Shown: positions 1-56,674, counted from the whole stretch's first letter. The stretch: 63,977 nt of DNA, filler included, from Catajapyx aquilonaris (GCA_000934665.2; 2 parts of 2 records of this genome joined end to end with filler, not necessarily neighbours in it); one strand, 5' to 3'. Notes: a model not told the origin generated them from the letters alone. Numbers and translations are program-made.

Positions 1-1909
1 CCGGACAGCCTGGGTCCCCCTGCTGGGCTGCCACCACCCACAACATCTGTTTCAGAGCCAGGTCAGAGTCCAGACAGAACCTCCACCGGCGGCGCACTTA
101 CGTCCATCCTGACCGGTAACATGTCAGGCACCTCCGCGCAGCACACCAACAGTCCATCGCCGGTGTACTCACGGCCAACGGGCGCCCCTGCACCCGCATG
201 CTGGCCCGACCATGGCCGCCAAGCATGCGACGAGGTCACCAGCCCCAGTGTCGCCACGAACTGTCCATCACCACACCAAGATGTTACAGAAGTCGACCAC
301 TTGCCAGCTCCAACACAGGGCCAAAAGGATTAACTGGGAATGGGAGGGGAAAATGGGAGGAAAAGGATGGGTAAACCGCCACAAAAACACCTCACACGTG
401 GGTTCAAAAAGTTCAAAAAGAGTTCAAAAAGTTCAAAAAGTTTCTGTATACACACTGCTGGTCACGAGGTCTTACAATGGGCTCACTCACAAAAAAAATG
501 TTACCACCATTGTTGCACACTACAACAACAAAACTATGCCGTAAAAAACCAATTATTGAAAAAAAAATCCACAAAAGAAACAACCAAGGCAAGCACCTCT
601 GAGCTGCTAACAATGCACAACAAACAAGTCCATTGCCAGCAACTCCATAGTGGCCGAGCTCCTATTCAAGCAATAGGAGTCACCCCCATGACAGCAAAAC
701 TCAAGGGTGCCAAAACAGGCAAAACACCCGAAAAGGGAGGAAGGGCATGCCGAACTCAAAACATGCCGCCCTCCGCTTCTTACGTTGTCCTGAAACGTAG
801 AAGCCCGAGTTCCGCGGCTTTCATAAAAGCCGCCAGTACCAGCTTACCCAAAACTGGCACCAGGAGGAACTACTCGATCGCACCAGTCGACCTCATCACC
901 CCACATGTCGACGCCCTAACCCCGCCTGGCAACCAGAAAAACCAGGCGAGCAAAAACATCGACTACCTTCGCCATGTCTCAACATGGCCATCTGGCTCTC
1001 TTTTGTCTCACAAAAAGGCCGGAAGGGGGGATTTAATGCACTGCATCTCATTTACAGAAAAATGACATGAAGTTCAGGAAGGTCAAAACCACTATTAAGC
1101 GAAATGGACGTTTGCACCTTCCTGGGTGTGCCTGGATGACGCAACAATAGTCACCCAAACAACCAAGCCAGCCTTCGCCTTCTCCTCAAAGGCAGTGGGC
1201 GGTGACTCGTCCACCCGCCCACCTGAGGGCTGGCCCCTGGGGCGCACACCACACCTCCACCGAGGCAGGGCGCACCCCGGTACCTCCAGTGATGAACTGG
1301 CGGTACCCTTGCACCGCTGGGTGGCGCTGTACCACAGCGCGAGTCCCTCGATTAACCAAATCGGTGGACTCCACCCAAGCCACGGGCAACAGTCTGAACT
1401 GTTCGCCCCGGGTCCGTGCAAATGCTACACTACGGGGTTTAAAAAAAACCCGAGGTAATAGACCCACGTTAAGGGCGCCAATGTGACGTTAAGGGCGCCA
1501 ATGTGACGTTAAGGGCGCCAATGTGACGTTAAGGGCGCCAATGTGACGTGCCCGCCCGGCTAAAGAGGGCACGACACATGGGACCAGACCCAGACACACA
1601 CCAGGCCTAGCCCCGACCCCTTTCTCCCACTCACCCCAGACAAAGGAGTCACACAGTTCCTGTATAAAACTGTTTATTGCACACTCACAATCATACCCAG
1701 CATACACACAGAACACTTACGCACAGGACATGGGGCCCAACGGCCCCCCAGACACAGGACACCAGGAGGTCACCTCCAACCCAACCACCCTGTCCCCTTG
1801 CCTCGCCTCGTCTCTTCACCTTCCCTCAACATCCGCCAGGTGGCTCCCCACCCTATCCACCGTGCTGCCCTCTGTTGGCAGCAGCCACTACAATAGGCAG
1901 ACTGCCACA
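1..1909 (-). mobile_element. 5' portion of an LTR retrotransposon (Gypsy/Ty3-like): 5' LTR 1909-1542, PBS, long non-coding leader running off the left edge
   Basis: On the minus strand a 368-bp segment starts TGTGGC (1909) and ends GTCACA (1542), i.e. TG...CA with a short imperfect terminal inverted repeat, and contains AATAAA (~1673-1678). One nt later comes TGGCGCCCTTAACGT, close to the tRNA-Lys1,2 PBS TGGCGCCCAACGTGGGGC. GC content is higher than the flanking intron. No recognisable gag/pol within the window. Confidence 0.75.
1461..1549 (-). repeat. 20-bp tandem repeat x4 containing the LTR terminus plus primer-binding site
   Basis: Four identical copies of ACGTTAAGGGCGCCAATGTG (minus strand CACATTGGCGCCCTTAACGT). 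Confidence 0.95.
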
Positions 1910-2789
1910 AATTACCAATCGTTATAGCTTGTGAGGTTAATCGTCTTCTCTGGTTATAGCTAATAATTATCCTAATATTGTCGCGAAATAAGTCCAGCTT
2001 TGAGGGCTATAGAGAGGTATACTGCGGGATTAAATTAGGTGCAAGGCGTATTGCTCGAATTGCCACGTGTTGCTGTAAACCCGATCGATGCGAAACCAAT
2101 ACGCTCAGTAAATTCTGCCAACTTCCACTGAATTCCTGGTTCTTAAAGCAGGCTTATTTGTGGAGATAAATTCAGCCATCGGAATCAAACATCCGCAATC
2201 TTCAATAGATTACGAGATAGGATGGAAAAAGGTTTCTATAGTAGTATAAGAGGGAAGCTATTGAATCTACCTGAATGGAATATAATTTTTGAGAGTGCAG
2301 ATGCGCATATTGCCGAAGTCAAATTACACGGTGCTTCTTTTCCACGTTTCCTCCTGAGACTGCCGGAGCATATTGCTAGAGTGTTTGGTAGCAAATGAGT
2401 GGAGCGGGACCAATTAGAGGAGAGCAATTAATCTCATGGGATGTACTTGTGAGGACGGGTCATGAATCCAAAATTGAGGAAAAAGGGAGTGAAAGGATTT
2501 TGATGTTACTGGAAAGATGATGCCAAGTAATAATGCAATGTAAGGCTCACATTACTAAATAAACGGGATGAATAATTGAAAATGTTTTCTGCGATGTGTC
2601 TGGTCCGTCACTGCATCACTTATGGAAGACCCTTTGAAACTAGAACTAGTTCTAATTGGAAGCAATTGCTACTAAGCTACTTATTTAAACCTCATTAAAA
2701 CTGACAGAAACTCGTTTGAAATAGCACTCAAGGAAATCCAGCTTAAAGATGACATATCTTACCTTTTAACTCTTCAATTTAATATGTTA

Positions 2790-14272: not shown

Positions 14273-17200
14273 CTGGGGGGGGGGGGNGGGGGGGATTTCA
14301 TATGAACTTTACATATGTACAGGATGTTCCAAACTAAAGCAATTTCAAACTAAGCGCCGAAACTTTCATATTATGAAAATGAGCAGATTGTACTTGTTTT
14401 GTCAATGTCGCAAAGAATATTGCGGTAACATCTTGTGTATTACAAAATCCGGTTGAGCAGCTCAGCATCAGACGAGAACTGTTTCAGAAACTAATTAATG
14501 TTATGTCCCGCCGAGGGCAAATGGGGTTTCTAGGCATCTACATAATTCATTACAGTGAGCACATGTCACCCTTTCACCTTGGGGACAGTCGACTCAAGAT
14601 CATGCAGTGGCCGATGGAAGGTAATCATCCGCTGAACCACGAGTCAAATCCGCAAGGCTAAGCTAGATATAATCAGCTTGAATATACTGTACAGTATGTG
14701 TAATTTCGCCAAATAATTAATGTAAAAGAAAATCCGTTAGGTGGCACATTTAACCAGCGCCATCTAGGAACCGACTTAAGCAAAGTGCCGTTACACATTT
14801 CCCCCTTAAGCTTTCAGCTGCATGTCCCGGGTTTCTAAGTAACTGATCCTTAATTCATGGCGTGTCATCGACCGGATTTTACGACCTGTATTTACGTGAT
14901 TGGTTGCTTAATTTTTAAAGCAATAAACTGGATAATTATCAATCCATAATCGGCTCTCTGACGAACCTTCAACGCCAATTTGTCAGCAGATCTGGCGCAA
15001 ATTGGAAAACTGCACTCAACTCATATTGCTTCGTACTGTACATCACAACGCAGGGTACATGTACAGTACAATATTGGAATGAAGTTCACCTAGGCTAAAC
15101 CGGATTGGAAACTTAAAGTTTTCTCTCAACCGTAACACTTGGGGAGGAGTCTTTTCCAGCAAGTTCGGGCCATTTAATGGCGGGGATGTCCTAACACTCA
15201 TTTCCTATGCAGAGTACTCGAGTCTAGGACAGTGCTCAAATCCTGGTTGTACAACTGTACTAAAACAAGATTCTTCAATAAAATCAGTTCGTGATTGCAC
15301 CAGAAGAGTATTGTAACATATATATTAGATTATTACAATAATATAAAAATATAGCCACACTGCCATCTTGTGACAGCTAGTGGCTATTAATTATGCAAAG
15401 CGTTGGGTTGCATCATGTCAGGATGAAACAAGTTGGAGATGGTAGGGTACCAGAATAAAATCAACCTGTAGGCCTACAAATGTGTATCATGCAGTGTCAG
15501 TTACAGAACTTCTCTCTTAAATTTAAAGGGGATGTACAGATTTAAAAGTCTCATTAATTTTTGGCAATCACACTAACGCGCCGCACATTTTGTGCAAGTT
15601 TGTAGCAGTGCTATTTTTTTTACGTCCCTGGTTGGAATTTTGCTCTTAAGCTCTTTAATTGCCGTGGGGATTAATCCTGGAATGTATATTAGTCCCCAAT
15701 GGGCAAAAACCTGACGAGGGCTTGATTTCTGACCGGTCTTCTTTGCAACTGCAGTTTGCAAATTTTCGCAAAATTTGCATTACACGTCATTCGTTCCCAT
15801 TAATAATAATAATAATAAACCATCTTGGCCAAAATCGCTGCAATTTATGACTCCTTCATTGTTTGATGTTCCTCTGCAGAATTCTGGGAACAAGCTCGAA
15901 TGATTCGTTGATTTTTTTTTTCTCGAAATGTAATGAAATTGCGAGCCAGTAAAAAATCAGTCGCAGAAACTAGGAGGCTGAACTTTATGCAAATTAGGAC
16001 GTTAAATGCGGGAAATATCTGCAGTTTACAGCCACTCTGAAATATTTATTTGCACTATTCTGGACGCGATGACACGTCCTTGATGCCCCTGAAATATTTA
16101 AGCGAATTCTGTCCCAACGTGAGTGCTGCATTTAATTTTATTTTCCAGGTTTCATAATGTAATCAACGTGGTTTTATCTAGTACGCAGTGTAGGTCAGCA
16201 TTATGTGTTTTAGTATTCAGAGAACGTGCACTACATAGTAAAAATTCAGTGCTAAAACAGATGTGAATATTAGAACTGGTGTAGGTATATATTTACAGTG
16301 AAAAATAAAATTATTTTTATTACAAATTTTTCTCATATTTTTTGTCAGGTATGCGCATTTTAGTCCATTAAGCACGAACTACGCGGAGGAAAAATCCGGA
16401 TAAGTTCTAGGCTAGAAAATCCCGGATAGTCAGTGAGCCGTGATCTATGAAGCTGGGTAATATCTCCTTCCCACGCTTTCATACCCGACCGGATTTAGTT
16501 CCAACCGGTTGCACATTTCTTCGCCCAACCACTCCGCAGAGCAAACTATTCCGTTGGCTCCCAAATATTCACCCCTCAAAAAATCTGAATATTCAATGAC
16601 TACCGTCAAAAGTGGATCTGCTCGCAATAATCCACAAAAAAATATGCCAATATAGGAAGTGGGCGACACGAAATTTGCAAATAAGTGCGTTTGGCGCAGG
16701 CAATTTGCAAAATTATGTTTTCTTTCTGTTTGTTTGCAGGCGGTTATATGCACAGCTGGTTTTAGCTGTAGGATAGAATTCTGCAGCAAGTTGGAAAAAA
16801 ATGCTAACCATTTTGCAGGGTTGTGGCTTCAATTTTGGCAATATGGCCTAATGGCAAGGGTGTGAAATGGACCGCCCCAAAATTGACCGTTTGGGCCTTG
16901 AATGGTTCCCATAATCCCATTTCAAGGAGCCCCGTGCAGTTTACAAGCACCTTGTTCAGAACGTGCCAATAGCTAATATATTTTCGCACTATTATAACTG
17001 ATTTCACCAAAAAAAGCAATGGGCCATGAAATGTTATCCTAACTGTACTTGTTCGCATGGTTGCCTAATTTCCAGGGTAAATTAAAATATTGTCCTTTTT
17101 TCGCAACTTTTTTTTTGAATCGATTACATTATTATTGAAACTGTTTAGAAGATTTTGTGTATTTGAATTTGAATCACTCAAGTATATGTCCTACTAAAAT

Positions 17201-20200: not shown

Positions 20201-21641
20201 AAAACATTCAAAATAATAGGTTATTAAAATCATGTCTTTGAACATCTGACCCCGCCTAGGGGCGCCTGTGGACGGATAGTGTCCACAGACGTGACGCACT
20301 GATCTCGACACTTCACTAAATCTGACGTTTAGAGCAGTATTACATCCCCTCAAGCAACCAACTCAACAGGTTTTTGATTCAGCTTCTCAATATGGCTGCA
20401 TCAGCAAAAAGCTGGCGAGCAAAAAGACAAAAATTCTGCCCATTGCTGCTTCCTGGATGATTTTATAACAGCTCTTGTTTTTGTCCACGGACGTGACGAG
20501 AAACCTCGGGGCAAAATTATTCTTGCAATAAAATCGATGCAATTGGGAACTTCAGGACAAAGAATGCACTGTAGCCGTTACCTTCAGTATTCCTTTCTCC
20601 ATTACTCTAACATAAAAAGTGAAATAACATCTTATGCATTGCATAGAAATTGACAAAACTATACGAAAGTGAAGGTTGGGACAGTCCACGGACGTGGCAT
20701 GTCACGCTCTGGGACCTAAAGAAAATATGAAATAATTTTCTCATTGCATATTAATTGTTATGTGCTCCGTATTCCGCAAGTTGCAATGTTATTTCTTTGC
20801 ATGTTATCTGGTTTTCAGATGTTATATGAAGTCCAGAAATTAGCTGGGACATGAAATTGCAGGTTTTTTCACTATTTACTCAATTACGTTTGAAATCACA
20901 ATTATTTCATGTGGATAAAATGCTGCTTACTTAATATTCATTTCATTAATTTCAGTTCTGTAAGCTTGATGGACTAGTTGATATGGTAATTTTAAATATC
21001 GGAAGAAGTCGAGTGAAATGCTTCTAAGAATACGTAATTCAGACCAGTGTAATTCCCGCACTAATCAATGATGCAACGTTGCATGACTTGAACTTAATTC
21101 GGGATTTAAATCGTCGCATTTTAGATTACGCCAAGATTTATTGCACACCACCGAATAGTTCCCTTATTACAGGGCTACATCTTGAGACTACTTTATTCTC
21201 ACTAAGCGCCTTCTTGAGAAGAAGAAAAAAAAACTGCATTAATTGCTATTCCGAAGGGAAATAGTAAAACCCTGAATTTGCATATGATGCATGAGTATGT
21301 CAGGCCGCAATTCAAAACTGCCAATAACATTCGCAAAAAAAATGTTATGAAGTAGGCTATTATATAGTTACCCTCAAAATGTTTGTAATAAATAAATTAA
21401 GCTCAGGAGTAAAAATGCAAATGATTGGTTGTATGTTCAAAATAATTTATATAACTTTGCACAAAAGTTCAGCCAAGTTTAAGCATGGATTGAGGTACAA
21501 CTCTGTAGTTAGTAGAGTAAAACAAAGAGACAGAGTAAGTGCTGGATTATTATGCGTCACCAGAAATCCCATCCAAGGCCTCTTATGCGACTGATTGGTT
21601 CCAATTGATCCCAATCAGATCCAGGAAGAGTCCGCACTCAC

Positions 21642-21999
21642 CTAGCACGATCCACATCACAATCGCGTTTCCTCCGACCGCGACCAACAACATGGCACCA
21701 AACACCGTGGTCCAAACCAGCTTCTGCCACCATGGCAGATCGTACGGCCTGTGTGTCGGGTAGAGACAGTCCTGCAGTCTGATCTGCAATCCCGACTGTT
21801 CCTCCGAAGGCACCAGTTCATTCTGGCTGTAAAAGAGGTAGTAAACCAGGTCCACCAACTGGGTCCGGTTCAAGAGCCATACTTCAGGACCGGTCAAATT
21901 GGCCCGAGTTAGACTAGGAGACACTGAGATCACTCTGGAGGTGCAATTGTACAGGGTGTCCTCCGATGCCCAACGCTGTTCGTCTGTCGCGTTTGCCAT
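21642..21999 (-). CDS. TkR86C: Tachykinin/natalisin receptor TkR86C-like GPCR, coding exon 1 (N-terminus and TM1)
   Basis: MANATDEQRW...RPYDLPWWQKLVWTTVFGAMLLVAVGGNAIVMWIVL, with N-glycosylation sequons (NAT, NCT, NLT, NRT) and the TM1 GN motif. Donor G|GTGAGT is phase 1, compatible with exon 2. Confidence 0.9.
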
Positions 22000-23542
22000 T
22001 GCCACTTCACACTGACACACAGCACTTGGGGGGTTTGAACCGAACCGGAGGATACACGGAGGGTGACTAAAGCGGGTTTGGGGGGTGGTTTTTGGAGGAT
22101 GGTCGCCGCCTGCGCTCACCTCGAGCGAATCGAGGCGCTCCGGACAGAGTTGAATGCTTGGCGGCACAACTTGTGTGTGGGTGGCACCCAAGTGAGCGTC
22201 GTTTTGTGGACGACAATGCGTCGGATGACATGTGTTCGAGTACTGTGGAAATGGAGCCAATATGGATGGAGGGAGCAAAAAATTGGTAGGAATAAGTGCC
22301 CTCTGTGGGTGGCGTCACTGAATGAACATTATTGCTCGTAGTCCATGGGATTGTACGAACAACAGGCGTTTTCGAGTTACTTTGGCAATAAGTAAGGCCA
22401 TTACTGGCAATTTGTCATTCATGACAGATTCATGAAGCGTGCGTTGGATCTGAAAGGGACGTCGAGACACAAATATGATTCCGAATCTAGTCCAAGTTAT
22501 AAAGTGAATTTTATATCAGGTGACGCGTAAGCTGTAAAGAATTGAATGTAACTTGTTTACTCTCGAATGGAAACAGGAGACGTGAATGGGCGGGAAAAAA
22601 AACTGAATAAGACTCGACGCTATTCCTGATGTCATTGTATGTCGGAAGCCCCTTCTTATGTCGTAACAGGAGGTGATCAATATTTCTAAGAGAGCTACTA
22701 ACTTGTACATGTTTAACATGTTACAAAGTGAGGATGATAATGCCTGCATGAGTTATTATCATCATGAAATATTAAAGGCACAGAGAGCGATTAGCGTACT
22801 GCGATATAATTTTTTACTAATTTAATTAAGACCGAAAATTAGTCGGTACTCTTAATGTGCAAAGTAACTAACATGTTTAATCACTTGCAGTAAATTATTT
22901 AGTGTTTCACTAAATGTTCAACGTGCATAGATCGTATATCACCGTTAGTTTGAAGGTTCGCCTAGATGTCACTATCTCTTCGTGGGTGTTGAATCTATGG
23001 AGGATACAGTAGTTGCAATTTACACCGCGAGATGCCCCTCACGAATCATAATCGATCGCTGTTATTCTGCCCTTACTAAATAACGTTGGAAATATCACGT
23101 TAGCGAAAGTTGCTCAAGGGTCTACAAGCAATAATTTTAATGATACTATTAGCGTAACTTTGAAGTTAGATTTTCCGAACCTTCCAGAATGATCTATGCA
23201 TAAATAATTTTAAAAATAGGAGCTACGGAATGAATCAACAGGTGAAACAGTTTAACCTGATGGCTACCTGTTGCGATGCCCTGATTTGACTATACATTTA
23301 CAGGTTCGCAATAATACGCCCGATAGAGGCAAATATTTACCTTACATTCATTAACTGTTGCAACTGATAAACTGGAGTGCAATAGTAGGTAATTATATAT
23401 TAATAAAAGCTATGTGAAATGGGGCCAATGAATATTAATTTCACGACGTGTTTGTTTATCAGCCGGTATTTATTTGTTAACATCATAACTACTGTGTTTT
23501 GCACAAAACTTCCCTTTCACTATAACTTTAAAGCTCAGCAAA

Positions 23543-27622: not shown

Positions 27623-29905
27623 ATGTACAAGAATCGGGAAATTTTGCACTATCCAAGAACAAGATTCGCTTCAAGTAACCGACGTCCAAATTTAACTCCA
27701 GTGTTAAAAGCCGAGCCGGAATGGCCACCTCAACATCACAAAAATTCGAGTCAAAATATTCAGTCTTTATTCGAATATGCCTACATGTGTGTGAAGGATT
27801 ACTGTGACAACACTTCTCTTCATGGATTCAAATACATTACCCAACATTCCAAACTGAAATGCGAAAGGTACGATTGTACGGTATATAAATGAGTGAGATT
27901 CAGCCAGTGACCTTTTGATACATATGTTTACAGGTTTTTGTGGGTCTTGCTGTGTTCATGCACAATAATCGGAACAGTTATTTACATGCATCCTTTTATG
28001 GAGAAATTCTTAAGCACTCCGATCTCAACCACTATTGCGTCTACGGGTGAACCTGTTTGGACTATTCCGTTTCCAGGAGTCACCATCTGTAACGTGAACA
28101 AGGCCACAAAGTCACAGATTCAGATTATGTCAAACACGTCATTGTAAGTACAGTTTCTTAGTACTTATCATTGTGTCCAGTACGTCAAAAAAATGTGAAA
28201 AAACCAATGTAGCACGGTGGATGTTTCTCTTTCTTCACCTTGATAGAGTTCTGATGGTGCACCAGGATTAGTTTGTCTTAATCCTTTCTCAACTTGTTTC
28301 AGCTGGAAAAAATATCCTCCAGAAGTCATTAATGATGTCATTCGTTATGTTGCTAAAATTGGCCACGTCCAAGCCAACCGTGCGAGTACAACAATACCAG
28401 AAGACCTGCTGGAAAGTGCAATTGACGAACAAGTTCAAGGGGAAGGCTTGAGCCATCTAATGGAACAAGTGCGTAATAATGTCAATTGTTGGCTATGCAC
28501 CAATAATTGTTTCTAATTAACGTTTGCAGGTCACGCAACCAATTGAGCGCATGGCTCTGAAGTGTTGGTGGATTAGTCGTGCCTTCAATTGTTCTGAAAT
28601 GCTTCAATTGAGGCACACTGACACTGGGTTTTGTTGGGGGTTTAACACCGTGGCTATGACACTAGCCAATGGCATGTAAGTCCTTACTAGCCACTGAAAT
28701 ATTTTTAATTAATAATATTTTACACCAGTAATATTTATAGAGAAGATGTTTTTACACCCGTGCGAGTCAATGGAGCTGGACACAATGTTGGACTGACAGT
28801 TCTGTTGAATCCGGATGTGGAACAATATTACGCCTATTCTAACAACGTGTACGGTTTCAAGGTACGGCACCGACATGCCTTTCTATTCCTACATAAACAT
28901 ATGCACATTTTTGTTTAGGTTCGGATTCACTACCCGATGGACTTTCCAAACGTGGCCTCCAAGTCATTTTTAGTCGATTCGGGTAAAGAGGTGCACGTGG
29001 CGGTCACTCCGATATTCACACAGAGCACCAAGAACATTAGGAACACAGCCAGAGCCAACAGACATTGTCGCTTTGAGGACGAGCACAATTTGGATTACTT
29101 CCCAACGTACAGTGCTGTCAATTGTCGCCTGGAATGTCTGTTGTTCACTATGAGAACAGCGTGTGGATGCGTGCCATACATGTTCTCAATGCTTAGTAAG
29201 TTACAGTTTAGCTTACAATTTAGCAGACTATTTTAAACTTATTACATTATTTTCAGAAAACCAGACTCGGTGTAGATACAGGGGATTGAAATGCATCAAT
29301 GAACTCTTGAGTATGACGCCGTATTTGACACACTGGTTTATGAAAAGGGTTAATTTAAAAATATTTCAGGTAAGGTTTTGACAGAAACAGAGGGTGACAA
29401 GGATGCGAGGAAATGCGATTGTCCTCCGGGTTGTATATCGTTTGGATACAGCTACGAACAGAGTCAGGCGTCGTTTCCCATGTTTCCAGACGACTTGAAG
29501 TTGCCTGGACCTGACTATAACAAGTGAGCCTCTAACAGTAGCACACTATTTACAGTAGGAACGTAACAATCATAATCTGCAGGAGCCACTTGGTTCTGCT
29601 CAGAGTGTTCTTCAAAGACGAAACATATGTCCAGTTCGAAAGAGACGTCATGTACACGGCGAACGACTTTGTTGGTAATTAATGAATATTGCATACTCAC
29701 AATATATTAATCAATGCAAATGTAATTACATTGTAATATATTTGTGACATGTGTTTCAGCATCGTTTGGAGGAATAGTTGGTCTGTTCATAGGATTCAGT
29801 TTCATCAGTGTGGCGGAACTGATCTACTTTCTTGCCATCAAGCCATTCTTGCACTGGAACAGGTTTATGACCCGGAACAAGGTGACTACTATCAATGTAC
29901 GTTAG
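27623..29905 (+). CDS. ppk: Pickpocket family DEG/ENaC sodium channel subunit, ~540 aa (10 coding exons)
   Basis: Exons: 27623-27867, 27934-28143, 28303-28468, 28530-28675, 28729-28861, 28919-29195, 29257-29310, 29370-29523, 29583-29674, 29760-29905 (1623 nt, GT-AG, in phase). Motifs: TSLHGFKYI (HG), TM1, FPGVTICN, GFCWGFN, Cys-rich thumb (NCRLEC..CGCVPY, CDCPPGC), and TM2 FGGIVGLFIGFSFISVAELIYF with the G-x-S filter. The specific ppk ortholog cannot be assigned by eye. Confidence 0.92.
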
Positions 29906-31945: not shown

Positions 31946-32045
31946 NNNNNNNNNNNNNNNNNNNNNNNNNNNNNNNNNNNNNNNNNNNNTTAATTAATTA
32001 ANNNNNNNNNNNNNNNNNNNNNNNNNNNNNNNNNNNNNNNNNNNN
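31946..32045. other. Artificial assembly linker/gap
   Basis: Exactly 44 N + TTAATTAATTAA (stop codons in all six frames) + 44 N = 100 bp. Confidence 0.95.
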
Positions 32046-33365: not shown

Positions 33366-36300
33366 TTAAAACAAGATCGGCAAATCACGAGATAGTGATT
33401 CAATGAGACTTTCTCATTCTTTCAAGTACCGTATGCGCATGTGAATCAATATATCGATACCGAGATATCGCAACGTATCGATTCCAGTATCGGCCTGGCC
33501 GAGGACGCGCATCGCAAACATGTCCAACGTCAGGAATTAATTCCACAGCCCCTGTGCCAGAACCCCAGGTAACACCCTGCGTAAATCCCCGACACACTTG
33601 GTCAAGAATCCAGGGAAACGAATTTCGAAATCCTACGATAACTCGCCTGTAATGTAGACTTGTGCGGATAGAGTGAACCCGGAAAACCGAAAGTGGCAGG
33701 TCACCCGAAGTTGACTATGAAACCTATTTAGGTCACGCTTAATCAGAATCTGAAAACTGTTTATGGCTATCTCTTGCGGTTTAGACCCTGGTACCTGTCC
33801 ACAGACGGACGGACTACTTGTATGCCATTTTTTAAATGAGAAAAGTCTTTAAAAAAAGTGCTGCATGATTCCATATAACTGCTAAAGCTTCTACTGGCAC
33901 AAAAGTAGCAACTCTGCATTTGACGTCACTACATCCTCCATATAAACCTGGGGCCAAGCCGACAGCGGTCCTATTCTTCCCTCTAGTGTCGTTTGGCACT
34001 TGAAACATTGTTGCCCAAAACGTCATAATTTATATTTTCTTCCCAAGTCACGTAATAAAACGAGTTTTAGTGAGAGTGACTAACTCCCAGCATCGTGCTT
34101 AGGTATAGTGTCAGCTAGCCAGTGCTCTCTGTGTGGTAATGACGATTCCCAGTACTTCCTCATGGTGCTGTAGCTTTGTGGGGCCATCATCCATCGTGCC
34201 GGAGCTTCCAGTCATAATTTATGAAGTGGTGCAGACCAAGAGGGAGATTAATACGAGCCCTGCTTGGTCTCCACCTAAAAGATTCCTCAAATTGCGGCAA
34301 GCAATCTCCCTCTTCTCGTCTTATCCATTTTGCTCGGCCCCAACACTGCTTCTCGCGCGCCCACTTAATCAGTTTATCCGATTATTTATAACCCAACCAC
34401 GAACATGTCATATTGTACTGTAAGTTACGAAGTAGGGTGTAGTGTAACTTGGCGCTCGTGGTTTTTCTGAGCGTCATATATGAATAAAAGAAAAATCGTT
34501 GGGAATTGCATCGACGCGCTCGGTACATTAGGAAAAAAAAAAATGCCACTTTGAGAATATAATCCAGTCTATCCCGCATATTAATGTACACTGTTTATAA
34601 ATTATTTATTGGTAGCTTGGAATATGCACAACAGATGATGGATGACTGAATCACTAGATCTGAAGCAGTTTATGAATTATTGTGTATGTGCAGAACAGGT
34701 TCCTATAATTAAGGACTTGTACGGGTAAGTGATGACCTGCTAACAGCCCCAACAATTGCCCAAAAAAGGGCATCGTCCCAACTCAGCAGTTGCGTCGAAA
34801 TAGGAATGCAAAAGGCGGTCTTAGCACTGATCCCAATAGTTTACCGGGTTTCATTTCTACGTATTGATTCGATCGACTTATTGGAATTTTAATGGGCCTT
34901 GCGAGTATGATGGGCCACTGAACGCGACTTGAAAAGATAAAAATGAACTTGGCTCGCAGGGAAATGAGAGCCTCGACAAGACTGTCGTTCTACTAAAAGA
35001 AGAGACTCTGCACATTGCCATGAAGTCGTCAAGGCGAGGCAAATGTATAGAACGAAATACGTTTTACAGTAGATCGTGAGTGATGATGGTAATGACACTT
35101 CAGAAATTTTTTGGTGAAGAGTTACATTAATTGACTAAGTTATACTTTTCGGAAACATGGAGTTTCCATAAGTCCCAACGCTTGCTTCCTAATACTTTTC
35201 TCAATAAGATCTAACTTAACACCTAATTACACCATAAGGCATAACCTCTATAGTCTGCTCATCGTCACCATTGAGGTTCTGGGGCTGCAAAAAAATATAA
35301 ACCATTCGAGGGTGTGCTTGACGCTGGGCCTGCAAATGGGACATTGATGTGAAGCCTGACAAGTGAGAATGTCAACATTGTGACTCGGATTGGAACACTT
35401 CACTTTTGTGGTGCTTTATAAGAAAACTGACTTTTCCTTCAGAATATGCACATTAAAGACTAGACTGCACAATGCTTCACTCAATCCCGACAAAAATGTA
35501 TCATGTGATGGCATATGGCCAGCAAGTGTTGAACATGACCAACATAGTGAACATGTCCAAACTAACATTGTACAGAGGAATGGGTTTTTTTTCTGCTCCC
35601 ATCCCATCACTTCTCCTCTACTACACATGCAAAACAGGAGAGAGCACACGACTAAAAGCATGGTACATAATCAGAATAATTTATGTATGCATTAACAAGG
35701 ATCCCTTCCAGCTTACTTGACCAGAATCCATGATTAGATGTCGTTCAGTCACCTGCAATAAAAAGAACCCAGGGTGAGGCACGTTGAGCCTGAGAGGATT
35801 GAGGTTGAGAAACTATGCTGACTCAGGTATGAAATATCTACCTGAGAACTTAGTAGTCCCCGACAACTGAGCAATCATACACAATCCAGATAAGTTTATG
35901 TGCTAGTGACAACAATGATTTATTGCACAGCTCAACTCTGAACATAACACTACTGCAATTAACACAGTTTTACACTGGTTGGAGAGTTGGACACATCACA
36001 CAGGGACATTAAATATCAGGCTAGGCGTACCATGTTTCCAAATACTAGCACTACAACTACTGGCACAATATAAAAATTTGCTCATCCATCCCTTAAATGC
36101 AGTGTTCTTCCTTAAAAAGAATTTAGCAACCTGAAATTTTAACTCCTTCTACCTTTAAAAATTGACCAGAAACAGCACCAAGAATTGTCTTGTCTTTTAA
36201 AATCTGAAACAATATCCCTTTTCTTTGTTGATATTATTCCAACACAACAATTATGCACTGCGAATGAATTGGAATTTTTGCATTTGGATTTGGATTTTTC

Positions 36301-36488: not shown

Positions 36489-37529
36489 TTACACCTCCTC
36501 CTTAGACTGTGTGCCCCAGCTTGTTCCACTCCCCTCTGGGTCCCTGGTCAAAAACTGAACAAACTCCTGCAGCAAATCCTCCTGGTCATCAAACAAGTTT
36601 ACCATCTCCTGGTACAGTTCTGCCTCCAACAGATGCTTCCTCAGAAGTGCAGATGCAGCACCCTCCTCATCCACCTTGCCCTGGTTCTTCTGCCAAGTGT
36701 GTAATAAGTCAAGGAACACCTTGAACTTATCTGGTCGCCCTTCATAACGCCTCTTGACTTTGTCGACAAACTGGACCGCAAGGTTAACAATTGGTGATGT
36801 TGCTGATTCTGATGCAAACGGTGGCTCAACAGGAGCATTGTCCATTGGGTCAGCTCTCCCACCTACTTCTTCTGGTGCTACAGAAACTTCTGGAACCACA
36901 ACCGGCAGCTGGGTGGGGTTGGTGAGAGGGGACCCAGTTGGAACATTCTGAGATGTCGGAGTGTCCAACATCTGATCTGCACGCAGGACTTGAACCTTCC
37001 AACCAGCAGGAAGGTAATGAGGCATGGTCAGCATCAACTGTTCTCCACCAGGTAGTACTTCAACCTTCCAACCACGGGGCAGGAAAGCATTGAAGCCAAC
37101 AATCAACTCAATATGATCTCGGAAGAGGCTCGCGATACGTTCCACCATTCTTGCTGGGCATAATGACTCTTCGTCTGTGTCGTTCACAAGGTCGAGAAAA
37201 TCATGAAACAGCTGCGGTTTGTAGCTAACCGTGGACTCTACCTTGTCCAAATAGGCTGTCGCATCATTAATTCTCCGCCACACTTTGCGCTGTACATCGT
37301 CATCATGATTGCTGTCACCCGATGGAGCATCAGCTTGTTCGGTTGGTGGCGACCCGACACTCCCTGCCACTCCACTCGACCCTGAACTCCCTGAATCTGG
37401 ATTCGGAGGGTACTCTTGAGTTGCAGTTGCAGCTGCTGCTGCTGCTGCTGGGGGGCCTGTTGACATGGTACCAGGAGCTACCATAGGAGGAATGGTCTCT
37501 GAGCCTGCTTCGTCTGCATTCTTATTCAT
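36489..37529 (-). CDS. Truncated Sin3-like protein with two PAH domains only (~346 aa, single coding exon)
   Basis: PAH1-like RINDATAYLDKV...FHDFLDLV...RIASLFRDHIELIVGFNAFLPRGWKVE and PAH2-like NLAVQFVDKVKRRY..RPDKFKVFLDLLHTWQK...LYQEMVNLFDDQEDLLQEFVQFL. The stop falls 19 codons after PAH2. A likely acceptor TTGTTACAG| at 37582 precedes ATG 37529; the ORF track extends the frame to 37634. Confidence 0.85.
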   Translation of the reverse strand: MNKNADEAGSETIPPMVAPGTMSTGPPAAAAAAATATQEYPPNPDSGSSGSSGVAGSVGSPPTEQADAPSGDSNHDDDVQRKVWRRINDATAYLDKVESTVSYKPQLFHDFLDLVNDTDEESLCPARMVERIASLFRDHIELIVGFNAFLPRGWKVEVLPGGEQLMLTMPHYLPAGWKVQVLRADQMLDTPTSQNVPTGSPLTNPTQLPVVVPEVSVAPEEVGGRADPMDNAPVEPPFASESATSPIVNLAVQFVDKVKRRYEGRPDKFKVFLDLLHTWQKNQGKVDEEGAASALLRKHLLEAELYQEMVNLFDDQEDLLQEFVQFLTRDPEGSGTSWGTQSKEEV

Positions 37530-37667
37530 CGTGGACGTAGCGGTTTTTGTGAAGTCAGGAACACAATGGGAACTGTGTAACCTGTAACAACAAAGCACAT
37601 TCCCAGTAACACATGGAAGTACAACAATGTCCATGAAATTGTCTGAATAATTATGTTCATTACAAAT

Positions 37668-39807
37668 GAAGACCTCGGGGGAATAACTATCAAGGTCTAC
37701 CTCAGGTGAAACGGAGACATTCCAATTTTAAATTTCGAAGGTCCATAAGGTTCTATTGTAAATCTCACTTTCGGGGAATTCCATTGTGACCTATGGCCAT
37801 AACTCCACAACCACGACCAACCCATCATATTCTACACTTCGGGTGGTTCCATTTCAGATCAGCCAGTGAGTGAAAAAAGGTGTCAGGTCATAGTCATCGA
37901 TTTTTTTGAAAAAAATATATGTGAAACCCACATCCAATTGAACTCTTATGGAGCAATCAGTTTTACTAGATTAAATTTAGTTATCAAGATATTAATATTT
38001 CTTTGAAGGGGTACCAAAATCACAATAACGCGAAGAGGCACTTTTTCCCGCTTTTTCCATTGCTTTCAATGAGGATATCTCGGGAACTGTTCTGAGAACC
38101 AACATGAAATTTAAAACTCATGCTTTTGGAATAACACACTGTCATTTAATGCATAAATTTACTCTATTTAATGGTACAGTCACCTGCAAAAAAATCACCA
38201 ATCTTGCATATTTTGGTCAAAATGCGCATATTTCGCAATTTATTACGCCGTTATGGTAAACATGACGGTTGTGCTGATTATATTTTGTGATATACTCGGC
38301 GACAACCTCCAGGCTATGAAATAAAACCTTCGTTAGCTCCGCGTGTAGTTGAGATATGAGAGGTGAAAATATGGCAACAAGCGAAAACATGCATATTTCA
38401 AAAATGATTTTCTCAAAAAAGCCATTTTTAATTTTTTATTTTAATTTTTTATTTTAAAATTAACTGGTGTCAATACCCCGTATATATTTTTTATACGTGA
38501 GATACAAATTTTTGTAATGTCACAACTTTCGTAATTGTGCTACGAAATGGACAATTCAAATAAATATTTTCTCGAAGAAGCCATTTTGAAGATTTTATTT
38601 TTATTTTATATTTTACAAGGACGGACATGTTATAAAATTAAGTAGTGTCAAAACCCGGTATGTATTTCTTATACGTGAGATATAAATTTTTTGTGCTACA
38701 ATATGCACACTTAAAATAAACATTTTCTCGAAGAAGCAATTTTGAAATTTTAATCGTTGTTTTTTGTATAACAAAGTAGCATGAGTTCGATTATAAAATT
38801 ATATCAAAATTCGGTATATATTTGTATTCAGTGAGACAAAAATTACCACTGTAAAAAAAAATCGTGTCTCACTTAATACAAATATATACCGAATTTTGAT
38901 ATAATTTTATAATCGAACTCTACTTTGTTATACAAAAAATAACGATTAAATTTTCAAAATTGCTTCTTCGAGAAAATATTTATTTTAAGTGTGCATATTG
39001 TAGCACCATATATTACAAAAATTGTGACTTTACACAAATTTATATCTCACGTATAATAAATATATACCGGGTTTTGACACTACTTAATTTTATAACATGT
39101 CCGTCCTTGTAAAATAAAAAATAAAAATAAAATATTCAAAGTGGCTTCTTCGAGAAAATAATTTTTGAAATATGCATGTTTTCGCTTGTTGCCATATTTT
39201 CACCTCGCATATCTCAACTACACTAGGAGCTAACGAAGGTTTTATTTCATAGCCTGGAGGGGGTCACCGAGTATATCACAAAATATTATCAGCACAACCG
39301 TCACGTTTACCATAACGGCGTAATAAATTGCGAAATATGCGCATTTTGACCAAAATATGCAAGATTGGTGATTTTTTTGCAGGTGACTGTACCATTAATA
39401 GAGTAAATTTATGCATAAAATGACAGTGTGTTATTCCAAAAGCATGAGTTTAAAATTTCATGTTGGTTCTCAGAATAATTCTCGAGATATCCTCATTGAA
39501 AGCAATGGAAAAAGCGGGAAAAAGCGCGTCTTCGCGTGATTGTGATTTTGGTACCCCTTCAAAGAAATATTAATATCTCGATAACTAAATTTAATCTGGT
39601 AAAACTGATTGCTCCATAAGAGTTCAATTGGATGTGGGTTTCACATATATTTTTTTCAAAAAAATCGATGACTATGACCTGACACCTTTTTTCACTCACT
39701 GGCTGATCTGAAATGGAACCACCCACTAGTGAAAGTATCTTCTGAGATATTATGTAACATATTTTTGACAAAATGTGGACCTTGATCGTTCTCCCCCCGA
39801 GGTCTTC
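37668..39807. mobile_element. Outer MITE with ~34-bp TIRs and 4-bp AAAT TSD (Sola-like), hosting a nested foldback
   Basis: AAAT|GAAGACCTCGGGGGAATAACTATCAAGGTCTAC ... GTGGACCTTGATCGTTCTCCCCCCGAGGTCTTC|AAAT. A 4-bp AWWT TSD fits Sola1-type elements. Confidence 0.7.
37841..39724. mobile_element. 1.9-kb foldback (near-perfect palindromic) element
   Basis: GGGTGGTTCCATTTCAGATCAGCCAGTGAG... is mirrored by ...CTCACTGGCTGATCTGAAATGGAACCACCC. The arms match up to a short loop near 38840-38865. The left arm carries an extra ~170-bp internal duplication (~38400-38570). Confidence 0.93.
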
Positions 39808-40825
39808 AAATGTTCAGTGAAAATCAAGTGAAATTTCAGCACAAGGCATTGTTGTCCATTTGTTGATATCCTCCAAATAATGTCAAGTTAATGTGTGACA
39901 TTTTTGATCTATGCAATAATAAATTACCAGGCTTATGTAAATGAGAAGCAACACATGAACCTTCCATGGATTGATTGGGCAGTGATCCACGATAATTTCA
40001 ACTGCAAAGTTGTTCCTCATTGTAAGTCTTTCAATGAAAAATGAAGCTAATTAGTCAATGTTTGCCTAATCAGATTCTCAACCAAGTCAAATGAATTTGA
40101 AAATCATCACTTTGGATTTTTTTTCCAACATCACCTGACCTCAAAAAAGGTTTGGAGTTGTCGAGGATTTATGCCAATTTTTATGACAATATTAGCAAAT
40201 GTTCCATTTTTTAAAGTTGCTTATGGCTCACAAAGAGTAATCTCTCAAAATAAATTATACAGTGTGGCAACCTTGCTGTGCAATCTGGCAGCCCTTCAAA
40301 TGGGACAATTCAATGTTAAACCAGTAATTCAGACCATTAACTCCATCAATATCAATTTTAGTAGACCACATACTAGCTTCTGCTTAAAAATGGCACCTCT
40401 TCTATCATTTCCGTAAAAAAAAAAGATTTTAAAATGCTCATAAGTTAACACCTTTTGTGGCCATTTGAAGTTTTTAAAATGTTAAATTTGCAAACGCAAT
40501 TTGCAGTGTACTACAGTAATTTTTTTGGAAGTTGTTCCTGATAATATTATGTGAAAAATTTAGTGTCAGTATTTGACCATCTGGACTAGCAGATTTCCAC
40601 TTTTATGTCTTTTACCACATTGTCTATTGTCACAATTGTTCATTTTGTGAATGTACAAGGTTTAAAGTGAAGCACATAGCTGAAGGCAGAGCTTAATATT
40701 ATTTATGCAAACTAACTACAGACCTTATCAAAAATTGGTAACAGACGTTACACAGATTTTTAAAACTCACATTGCAAAATGATGCAAATCATCCCACTGT
40801 ACATTACCTCATGTTCACAACAATT

Positions 40826-47389: not shown

Positions 47390-47720
47390 GGGTATAATTT
47401 TTTTGTATAATTTTGTTTTTTGTATAATTTTTTCGTAAGTTTTTGTATATAATTTTTGTACAATTTTCCATTTGTATATAATTTTTGTATAATTTTCCAT
47501 TTGTAGGGGCCTATATAATTTTGTATATAATTTGTATATAATTTTTTGTATATAATTTGTATATCATTTTTGTATATAATTTGTATATCATTTTTTGTAT
47601 ATAATTTTTTGTATATAATTTGTATATAATTTTTGTATATAATTTGTATATAATTTGTATATAATTTTTGTATATAATTTTTGTATATAATTTGTATATA
47701 ATTTGTATATAACTTTTCGT
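47390..47720. repeat. AT-rich TTTGTATATAA tandem repeat
   Basis: More than 20 copies of an 11-14-nt unit T(n)GTATATAA, next to the 3' end of a SINE. Confidence 0.92.
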
Positions 47721-47734
47721 ATTATTTTCAATTT

Positions 47735-55169: not shown

Positions 55170-56035
55170 TTAAGGTCCTATGAGTAATGATTCTGTTTTA
55201 AAAACACAAGTATCATTATTTGAGCATCCATTTTACTGCAAATATGTATCAAATAATCAACATAAATTATATTCAAGAAAAAGTTGAAAATCTCGCAAAA
55301 TCTTAAGACACATGGAAGAGACAACATCCGAATATCACGTTTTATTTTTTCTCTTCCAATACGTCAAGAAGGAGTTTGTCTGGAGTTAGCTCGTCTGAAC
55401 GTCTCCATTAATTGATAATGAGTTGTGAAGTTGTTGTTTTTTTTCTCTCCTTTCGCTCAGAGCCCGAAACGACCCCAGCTGTTAATCCTGAAAAGTTGGG
55501 GAGGCTCTGAGATGCAAATCGGAGGAGAATGAATTTTCAGCTGGCACGAAATGAAGCCTCTCTCGGATAAAGGGTCGCCAGTTCCCCTTAAAAAACCGTG
55601 GTGAAGGAAGGGAATATTTTTAAAAACTGTCTTAGACTTCCAAACTCGACCCTTCTCGCCTCTCGCAAAGTGCAGCCAAGTGTAAACAAGTCATAAAGTA
55701 TTGAAGGCTTGGTGAAAGAGGAAGGGAGCGGAAGTGAAGTGGGGTAAGGAGGAGAAAGAGGGTGTGGGTTTGGAAGGGGGTGGAGTGAAATTAACTCCAC
55801 AATGGGGACAAAGTTTGAGACAACGCGAAGTCATTTCTCAAAAGTTTCAGTCTCAAAGTCAGGTGGCTAAGCCTTCATATTTCTCCCCCGGTACTTAACG
55901 GGGAAATAATGAATGATAAGGACATTACCTTGCACCTTCAAATCTCAAATGAGTATCAGGATGATGCTTGCTGCGACAGAAAATGTGTGTCAATGATTCA
56001 CTCATATGTACCAGACATAACTGCTATTTAAGAAA

Positions 56036-56674
56036 TCGATATAACCTCCTGAGACCCCTGGTACAGTATACTGTACCTTTGTTTTTCCCAGCACCTTCTG
56101 ACTAACTCTAACGCGTAAAAAACCAAAGGTACAGTATACTGTACCAGGGGTATCAGGAGGATAAATAAAGTTGTTTGTGAATCTGTCTGTCTGTCTGTCC
56201 GCCTGCTAACCGTCATTTGCCTGCCATCTGTGCTCCACCCCCAGGCCGGGAGAGGATGGAGGTGTTGGGGGTTGACTACAGATGGCAGGCAAATGAATGA
56301 AGGGAAAACACCTGCCAGTAGCCCCGTCAACTGTCCGTCTTTCTGTCTGTCCGCATACCAATGCCATCTGTGGTCCTGCTACTCCAACACCTTCAACCTC
56401 TCCAGCCTGTATAACGGCAACCGTCATTTGCCTGCCATCTGTAGTCAACCCCCAACACCTCCATCCTCTCCCGGCCTGGGGGTGGAGTAGCACAGATGGT
56501 AGGCAAATGACGGTTGCCGTTATACAGGCGGGAGAGGTTGAAGGTTTTGGAGTAGCAGGACCACAGATGGCATTGGTGGCCGGACAGACAGAAAGACTGA
56601 CAGTTGACGGGGCTACTGGCAGGTGTTTTCCCTTCATTCATTTCTTCCCGGGCAACGCCGGGTGCCGCAGCTAG
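56036..56674 (+). mobile_element. Non-autonomous Helitron, family 2 copy B, with a nested MITE and an internal inverted duplication
   Basis: Ends CCCGGGCAACGCCGGGTGCCGCAGCTAG|T. The 5' end TCGATATAA is interrupted at 56045. The interior is homologous to 51512-51804 in both orientations. Confidence 0.8.
56045..56160. mobile_element. 116-bp MITE with 37-bp TIRs and ATAA TSD (piggyBac-like termini)
   Basis: ATAA|CCTCCTGAGACCCCTGGTACAGTATACTGTACCTTTG ... CAAAGGTACAGTATACTGTACCAGGGGTATCAGGAGG|ATAA. Confidence 0.8.

Follow-up and report, generated by a model that had tools for sequence, protein, structure and literature searches.

A divergent Sin3-type reading frame with PAH1 and PAH2 domains stands alone in a 64-kb window

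Results

The longest open frame of the window carries two PAH domains

We analyzed a stretch of 63,977 nucleotides (the 64-kb window) and compared all 6,474 stop-to-stop frames in it. The longest lies on the minus strand and is open from position 37727 (412 codons); the next longest has 243 codons. It contains a coding sequence at 36489..37529, running from the ATG at 37529 to the TAA at 36491-36489, which encodes 346 amino acids and matches the Pfam PAH domain twice. We call the predicted product mini-Sin3. The first-pass annotation, made from the sequence alone, had placed an intact ORF at exactly these coordinates, and we found no interruption across the 346 residues. Chance was ruled out as the source of the frame, as the stop frequency of the window (0.051 per codon) predicts 3.3e-6 open runs of 412 or more codons. 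A transposon-encoded protein was also ruled out: the frame is not flanked by repeats as a unit and has no transposase-like Pfam match.

The first in-frame ATG is located further upstream, at 37634, and its use would give a protein of 381 residues. The resulting N-terminal extension of 35 residues (37530..37634, minus strand) is of uncertain coding status; it has no similarity to Sin3, and Sin3 homology begins well downstream of it. Read from the sequence, a pyrimidine tract followed by AG (tgtgctttgttgttacag|G) forms a candidate 3' splice site at 37582..37583 on the minus strand, 52 nt 5' of the ATG at 37529, with the frame open across it. Use of this acceptor would put the exon start at 37581 and make the ATG at 37529, which has an A at position -3, the first in the exon. 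The candidate acceptor leaves room for upstream coding exons. On the other side of the gene, a candidate polyadenylation signal (AATAAA, 35919..35924, minus strand, also read from the sequence) lies about 565 nt past the stop codon, and no A-run was found 3' of it.

The coding part of mini-Sin3 is intron-free, and a search around it for the marks of a processed retrogene, a poly(A) remnant and flanking target-site duplications, found none. Missing hallmarks would be expected if the event was old, and retroposition is still compatible with this layout. A 21-nt direct repeat (90% identical, consisting of a T-run and GCAGGTGACTG) brackets the Sin3-like gene region at 35743-35763 and 38174-38194, and an inverted copy is present at 39372-39392. 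It is the only such flanking direct repeat; it is not adjacent to any A-run, and its upstream copy lies inside an arm of the palindrome described below. The repeat may be due to chance, a fragment of an element or the remnant of an old target site.

Both domains resemble those of Sin3 in order and predicted fold

Pfam PAH (PF02671) was matched twice in the frame with an E value of 1.5e-15 and 57.1 bits (cut-off 21.3), far under the 159 bits that canonical Sin3 reaches with three domains. BLASTP, MAFFT and HMMER agreed in assigning the first domain to Sin3 PAH1 and the second to Sin3 PAH2. The PAH1-type domain with the following 'FLPRGWKVEV' segment spans residues 85-160 (37050..37277, minus strand) and the PAH2-type domain spans residues 247-329 (36543..36791, minus strand); Pfam, alignments, AlphaFold2 (AF2) and Foldseek all support both. 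PAH2 keeps the long loop between helices 2 and 3 that is typical of animal Sin3. In the segment after PAH1, 23 codons (69 nt) are duplicated in tandem and in frame (36948..37085, minus strand), seen as FLPRGWKVEVL... and YLPAGWKVQVL...; the copies agree at 28 of the first 39 nt, and the frame is unbroken. The stop codon follows 19 residues past the last PAH2 helix, in line with the initial description of a frame that ends right after PAH2.

We built an AF2 model of mini-Sin3 on a 58-row alignment. Its mean pLDDT was 70.2 with a bimodal distribution: 106 of the 346 residues scored at least 90, and these lie in two four-helix units. The PAH1 helices comprise residues 75-100, 105-117, 125-135 and 140-149, a block with pLDDT mostly above 90, and the PAH2 helices residues 246-261, 266-286, 291-313 and 317-327. 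Over the first 70 residues and over the linker (approximately 185-240), pLDDT values were near or below 50, and the model predicts that the N-terminal tail and the PAH1-PAH2 linker are disordered. When the domains were compared with the PDB using Foldseek, the top matches were exclusively Sin3 entries, with target-normalized TM scores of 0.77-0.81 and rmsd of 1.7-2.2 A for PAH1 against 2czy and 2rmr, and of about 0.7 (again target-normalized) for PAH2 against 1g1e, 2l9s and 1e91. A sequence search of the PDB returned human SIN3B (E 3.1e-23) and yeast Sin3 (1e-17 to 1e-18), and isolated PAH1 and PAH2 structures were also matched. A functional PAH domain is recognized by a four-helix bundle with a hydrophobic core; AF2 and Foldseek recovered the bundle, and 49 of 53 large-hydrophobic consensus positions are still hydrophobic. 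In the model, both domains are shown to retain the four-helix PAH fold and the hydrophobic core. The proposal of two Sin3-type PAH domains is therefore supported by Pfam, by the PAH1 and PAH2 alignments and by both structural methods.

No further Sin3 exons were found around the frame

For a tblastn search of the whole 64-kb window we used six queries, five of them full-length Sin3 proteins (1,272-1,664 aa) and the sixth a fragment, and accepted E values up to 10. These queries matched the mini-Sin3 frame alone, and all other matches in the window had E values of at least 0.79. PAH3, the HDAC-interaction domain (HID) and Sin3a_C were not found by tblastn in the window, which covers 36 kb downstream and 26 kb upstream of the frame, and Pfam did not detect Sin3_corepress (PF08295, the HID), PAH3 or Sin3a_C (PF16879) in the frame itself. 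The canonical control, P0056, carries PAH3, Sin3_corepress and Sin3a_C according to Pfam. Of the features that define full-length Sin3, the frame has PAH1 and PAH2 in N-terminal order and lacks the HID, PAH3 and Sin3a_C. Hence, what had been described as a stand-alone PAH1-PAH2 frame without PAH3 or HID is so throughout the window.

Pfam scans of 125 minus-strand frames of at least 45 aa (6.5 kb downstream and 18 kb upstream) gave no match at the cut-off. Together with further scans of 73 long frames on both strands and of 150 plus-strand frames, they yielded a single real neighbor, a gene for a DEG/ENaC channel (amiloride-sensitive sodium channel, PF00858) at 27911-29902 on the plus strand, which matches profile positions 21-455 over at least seven exon-like frames. 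This gene is compact, with short introns, and it and the Sin3-like frame are oriented convergently. Its largest exon retrieved no homologs, and Rfam had no match over 30-45 kb of the window. N gaps are present between the channel gene and the Sin3-like gene at 31946-31989 and 32002-32045, and single N positions at 14287 and 26918.

The frame could be one exon of a larger gene, in which PAH1 and PAH2 would be spliced, via the acceptor at 37582-37583, to exons further upstream, or else to downstream exons that went unrecognized in the window or lie outside it, to give a multi-domain product. The good pyrimidine tract and AG before the ATG and the frame that stays open through to 37727 are consistent with this, and the last codons, GAG|GTGTAA, hold a weak donor-like GT. 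Other proteins also pair two PAH domains with other modules; GON4L, for example, combines them with a YY1AP1-like region and a SANT domain (PMC13212936). However, none of the 125 same-strand frames reached the Pfam cut-off, Sin3 homology is confined to the frame within the window, very distant exons would be unusual in a neighborhood whose channel gene is so compact, and the stop comes 19 residues past PAH2, like that of the mouse short isoform. We consider a larger gene unlikely, though a serious contender.

Several other regions of the window contain repeats or long open frames. A 243-codon open frame on the minus strand (21586-22314) ends in a hydrophobic segment (…LVWTTVFGAMLLVAVGGNAIVMWIVL); it looks like the N-terminal part of a rhodopsin-type receptor, up to and including the first membrane helix, and Pfam gave no match to it at E ≤0.01. 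Nested inverted repeats at 56030-56643 (152 nt at 95%, 64 nt at 100% and 57 nt at 86%) produce long open frames on both strands with near-identical peptides; a small element made of palindromic repeats, not a gene, is the probable explanation. An AT-rich, microsatellite-like array at 47392-47722, with periods of 11-24 and up to about 23 copies, yields a spurious open frame of 127-164 codons with YTKIIYK-type repeats. The first 2,000 nt of the window (1-2000) have a G+C content of 0.54, compared to approximately 0.41. The GC skew there is strongly negative, and several long open frames in different frames overlap, none of which matched Pfam at the cut-off.

Mini-Sin3 is far diverged from all Sin3 proteins compared

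The domains had been called divergent in the first-pass annotation, and their identity to those of canonical tick Sin3 is 41% (PAH1) and 48% (PAH2). Canonical PAH1 and PAH2, by contrast, hardly vary: measured against the same tick domains, nearly all full-length animal Sin3A-type proteins are 86-97% (PAH1) and 69-96% (PAH2) identical; vertebrate Sin3B, with 75-79% in PAH1, and some nematode Sin3 proteins are lower than the Sin3A type. Sin3 of chytrid and mucoromycete fungi shows 71-79% (PAH1) and 59-64% (PAH2) identity to tick Sin3, and red-algal Sin3 69% and 52%. Judged by these identities, fungal and red-algal Sin3 both lie nearer to animal Sin3 than mini-Sin3 does. Across the 206 proteins compared, the highest identity to mini-Sin3 in alignments of at least 65 columns was 47% for PAH1 and 53% for PAH2, and over both domains together all 206 are nearer to canonical Sin3 than to mini-Sin3.

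We searched 1.84 billion representative proteins by phmmer and found neither an ortholog nor a closer relative of mini-Sin3 among 1,828 matches, and no match to mini-Sin3 itself. The top three scores belong to models with repeated canonical N-termini and not to closer kin. A search among proteins of similar length gave one match, a fragment model of canonical snail Sin3, and a search among longer proteins gave 45, all with approximately 30% identity and 44 of them with Sin3_corepress. The 15 best matches whose source names were checked were all annotated or built as Sin3. Scans of metagenome and viral contigs found no relatives of mini-Sin3. In a tree of PAH1 and PAH2 (26 rows), the terminal branch of mini-Sin3 amounts to about 10 changes per column, versus a median of 0.084, and its amino-acid composition is deviant; with 16 of the 23 inner branches unresolved, this tree serves as a measure of divergence and does not place the origin.

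Mini-Sin3 is probably a lineage-specific offshoot of Sin3, as judged from these comparisons. The best PAH2 identities (53%) and the PAH2 loop, which reads 'KHLLEAELY' in mini-Sin3 and 'KHLTEAEVY' in damselfly, wasp and mayfly, weakly suggest an insect-like Sin3A as the parent.

Indirect signs of selection on the frame, and a large palindrome next to it

To relate the open frame to this divergence, we simulated neutral substitution on the mini-Sin3 frame itself, using 4,000 replicates and ignoring indels. At 0.1 substitutions per site (80% amino-acid identity) 4.3% of the replicates stayed open, at 0.2 substitutions per site 0.175%, and at 0.3 or more (54% identity or less) 0 of 4,000. Since simulated neutral decay to a divergence such as that of mini-Sin3 (41-48% identity) left no frame open, mini-Sin3 evolved as coding sequence. 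We also scored conservation in 143 aligned domain columns against 172 and 176 distinct homologs. The consensus residue is kept in 62 of the 143 columns, and the kept columns are the better conserved ones (Mann-Whitney p 1.9e-5). The earlier argument that a frame this divergent would stay open only under selection is thus borne out by the decay simulation and by the preferential retention of the core. A third line, indirect like the other two, is the 23-codon duplication after PAH1, whose copies have diverged to 28 of 39 identical bases with the frame intact. Together these lines show a long evolution as a translated sequence that preserved the PAH fold. Past selection for an open frame is compatible with a recent loss of function.

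Directly upstream of the Sin3-like frame is a palindrome of 1.9 kb (37841-39724, with a weaker extension to 37662-39813), which begins 207 bp upstream of the first ATG at 37634. Its arms match over approximately 620 nt at 95-97% complementarity and over approximately 880 nt at 89% (blastn), with inner 156-nt tandem subrepeats, and the window contains one copy. The palindrome has the look of a mobile element of the foldback type or of an artefact of assembly, and it may have severed mini-Sin3 from its promoter.

We therefore weighed whether the frame is a dead or dying copy, that is, a partial Sin3 duplicate that was functional for a long time and is now unexpressed, for example through insertion of the palindrome, but not yet disabled. 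The 95-97% identical inverted-repeat arms directly upstream would fit such a history, as would the extreme terminal branch with its aberrant composition and the absence of mini-Sin3, and of any relative closer than Sin3, from the protein collections searched. On the other hand, the frame is fully open and has no frameshift, its core residues are preferentially retained, and with 4.3% of simulated frames surviving 0.1 substitutions per site any silent period must be short. We doubt that the copy is dead, without regarding the idea as far-fetched.

Each domain carries one change at a published specificity position

The hydrophobic cleft of a PAH domain accommodates one amphipathic helix from a transcription factor (PMC6168491). 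Mutagenesis identified Val7, Leu14 and Lys39 in PAH1, and Phe7, Val14 and Gln39 in PAH2, as specificity positions; K39Q abolished the binding of LVxLL-type peptides to PAH1, F7V weakened most PAH2 binders, and Phe7 and Val14 were required for binding of Mad (PMC1557813). We placed these positions by letter and spacing onto aligned Sin3B rows. At positions 7, 14 and 39, mini-Sin3 has Ile, Leu and Asp in PAH1 and Val, Val and Gln in PAH2, so that two of three are kept in each domain and one published position per domain is changed, Lys39 to Asp in PAH1 and Phe7 to Val in PAH2. In addition, the end of PAH1 helix 2, basic in Sin3 (MKEFKSQ), has become acidic in mini-Sin3 (VNDTDEE).

Because of the Lys39 to Asp and Phe7 to Val changes, mini-Sin3 is unlikely to bind the same clients in the same way. 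The first-pass annotation had offered two roles, a dominant-negative competitor and a re-targeting adaptor of the Sin3-HDAC complex. Asp39 in PAH1 and Val7 in PAH2 weaken the simple dominant-negative role and fit a re-targeted adaptor better. Between an HDAC-less adaptor or decoy whose client set has changed and a plain dominant-negative protein, we favor the former on the basis of these residues. The changed specificity residues could equally signify that peptide binding has been lost.

Discussion

We think that mini-Sin3 has about an even chance of being a functional stand-alone gene, a lineage-restricted, fast-evolving and HDAC-less PAH1-PAH2 derivative of Sin3. Such a gene would have originated by retroposition or by partial DNA duplication, and its protein would consist of PAH1 and PAH2 joined by a disordered linker, with a disordered tail at the N-terminus. 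The two PAH clefts would dock amphipathic helices of transcription factors, and without an HID the protein could not bring Rpd3/HDAC1 to the docked factors. Its role would in that case be that of an adaptor or decoy lacking HDAC, by analogy with the role proposed for mouse Sin3B(293). As one specificity position is changed in each domain, its clients probably differ from those of canonical Sin3 or are a subset of them.

A bolder version, in which positive selection remodeled the clefts of an HDAC-less Sin3 decoy for new helical motifs after the split from Sin3, is in our opinion a long shot. If true, the protein could be, for example, a germline- or stage-specific anti-repressor, or alternatively it could take part in a genetic conflict in which mobile elements or viruses make use of Sin3 docking. 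It would then be nature's equivalent of the synthetic 'SID decoy' reagents. That the frame belongs to the organism's only, highly derived Sin3 locus, with its other exons distant or in an assembly gap, is highly improbable despite the N gaps at 31946-31989 and 32002-32045, as a 41%-identical PAH1 would be unprecedented in an essential single-copy scaffold whose PAH1 stays at 86-97% in nearly all animal Sin3A-type proteins compared and at 71-79% in chytrids, and as the HID, the best-conserved Sin3 domain, was not found in the 64 kb.

Many repressors recruit histone deacetylase by way of Sin3, which serves as the hub, and the PAH domains of Sin3 rank with the most conserved docking modules of eukaryotes. 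A separate PAH1-PAH2 gene in which the fold persists would offer a natural experiment on how PAH specificity can be rewired, and would likewise probe whether HDAC-less Sin3 fragments regulate co-repression. To our knowledge, the co-repression role proposed for the HDAC-less short isoform of Sin3B in mouse was never settled. Gene models predicted in a wasp and a snail with PAH domains only (see below) hint that unstudied Sin3 offshoots recur in animals. If mini-Sin3 is unexpressed, it is merely a well-preserved relic.

Comparison with known PAH proteins

PAH-only proteins of approximately 300 aa that consist of PAH repeats alone are known from plants and fungi, a different kingdom, and the ESM Atlas clusters nearest to mini-Sin3 are of this kind. 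These clusters score 0.84-0.89, below the 0.9 level, and are linked to mini-Sin3 through the shared domain, so that they, and the impression they give that PAH-only proteins are common in plants and fungi, serve as leads only. Among animals, GON4L/Mute has two PAH domains and no HID, plus SANT and a YY1AP1-like region (PMC13212936). In contrast to GON4L, neither a SANT/Myb domain nor a YY1AP1-like region was found by Pfam in the mini-Sin3 frame or its same-strand neighbors. A literature search for a stand-alone truncated Sin3 gene in an animal found none described in the titles and opening lines of abstracts among the papers listed, which is weak evidence of absence.

Two automated 'Sin3a-like' gene models of other animals are likewise PAH-only and without an HID: XP_044019250.1 (P0049, 579 aa) from the parasitoid wasp Aphidius gifuensis and BFZ20695.1 (P0054, 324 aa) from the land snail Bradybaena similaris. 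Each has three PAH matches, versus two in mini-Sin3. Their PAH1 and PAH2 are 70% and 70% (P0049) and 67% and 56% (P0054) identical to the tick domains and 39-42% identical to mini-Sin3, and they are not its orthologs. These models point to a repeated origin of partial Sin3 duplicates among animals, although both are uncharacterized and may be annotation fragments.

Like canonical Sin3 and Sin3A (Ornithodoros P0056, Drosophila Sin3A), mini-Sin3 has PAH1 followed by PAH2, the 'FLPxG(Y/W)K(I/V)EV' segment after PAH1, the long loop between helices 2 and 3 of PAH2, and a disordered tail and linker. Unlike P0056, it lacks PAH3, Sin3_corepress (HID) and Sin3a_C, and it is approximately 1,000 residues shorter than canonical animal Sin3.

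A close parallel is the short PAH1-PAH2 isoform of mouse Sin3B, which the first-pass annotation had named and which is in print (PMC3786298, PMC5902990). As described there, SIN3B(293), or SIN3B-SF, comprises only PAH1 and PAH2 with a unique tail of 19 residues and does not bind HDAC (PMC5902990), and the 293-residue isoform was proposed to antagonize Sin3/HDAC co-repression (PMC3786298). Mini-Sin3 resembles this isoform in having PAH1 and PAH2 only, no HID and 19 residues past PAH2. However, SIN3B(293) arises from the full Sin3b gene as a splice and polyadenylation variant, and it has the very same PAH domains as the long form. Mini-Sin3 shows no sign of alternative processing from a full-length gene, with no downstream Sin3 exons in 36 kb; it is a separate locus without nearby Sin3 exons, its specificity residues are altered, and its domains are 34-53% identical to those of any Sin3 compared in full-domain alignments. 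Hence, a Sin3 product with PAH1 and PAH2 and no HID is already known as an isoform in mouse, and the one described here comes from a separate and extremely divergent locus.
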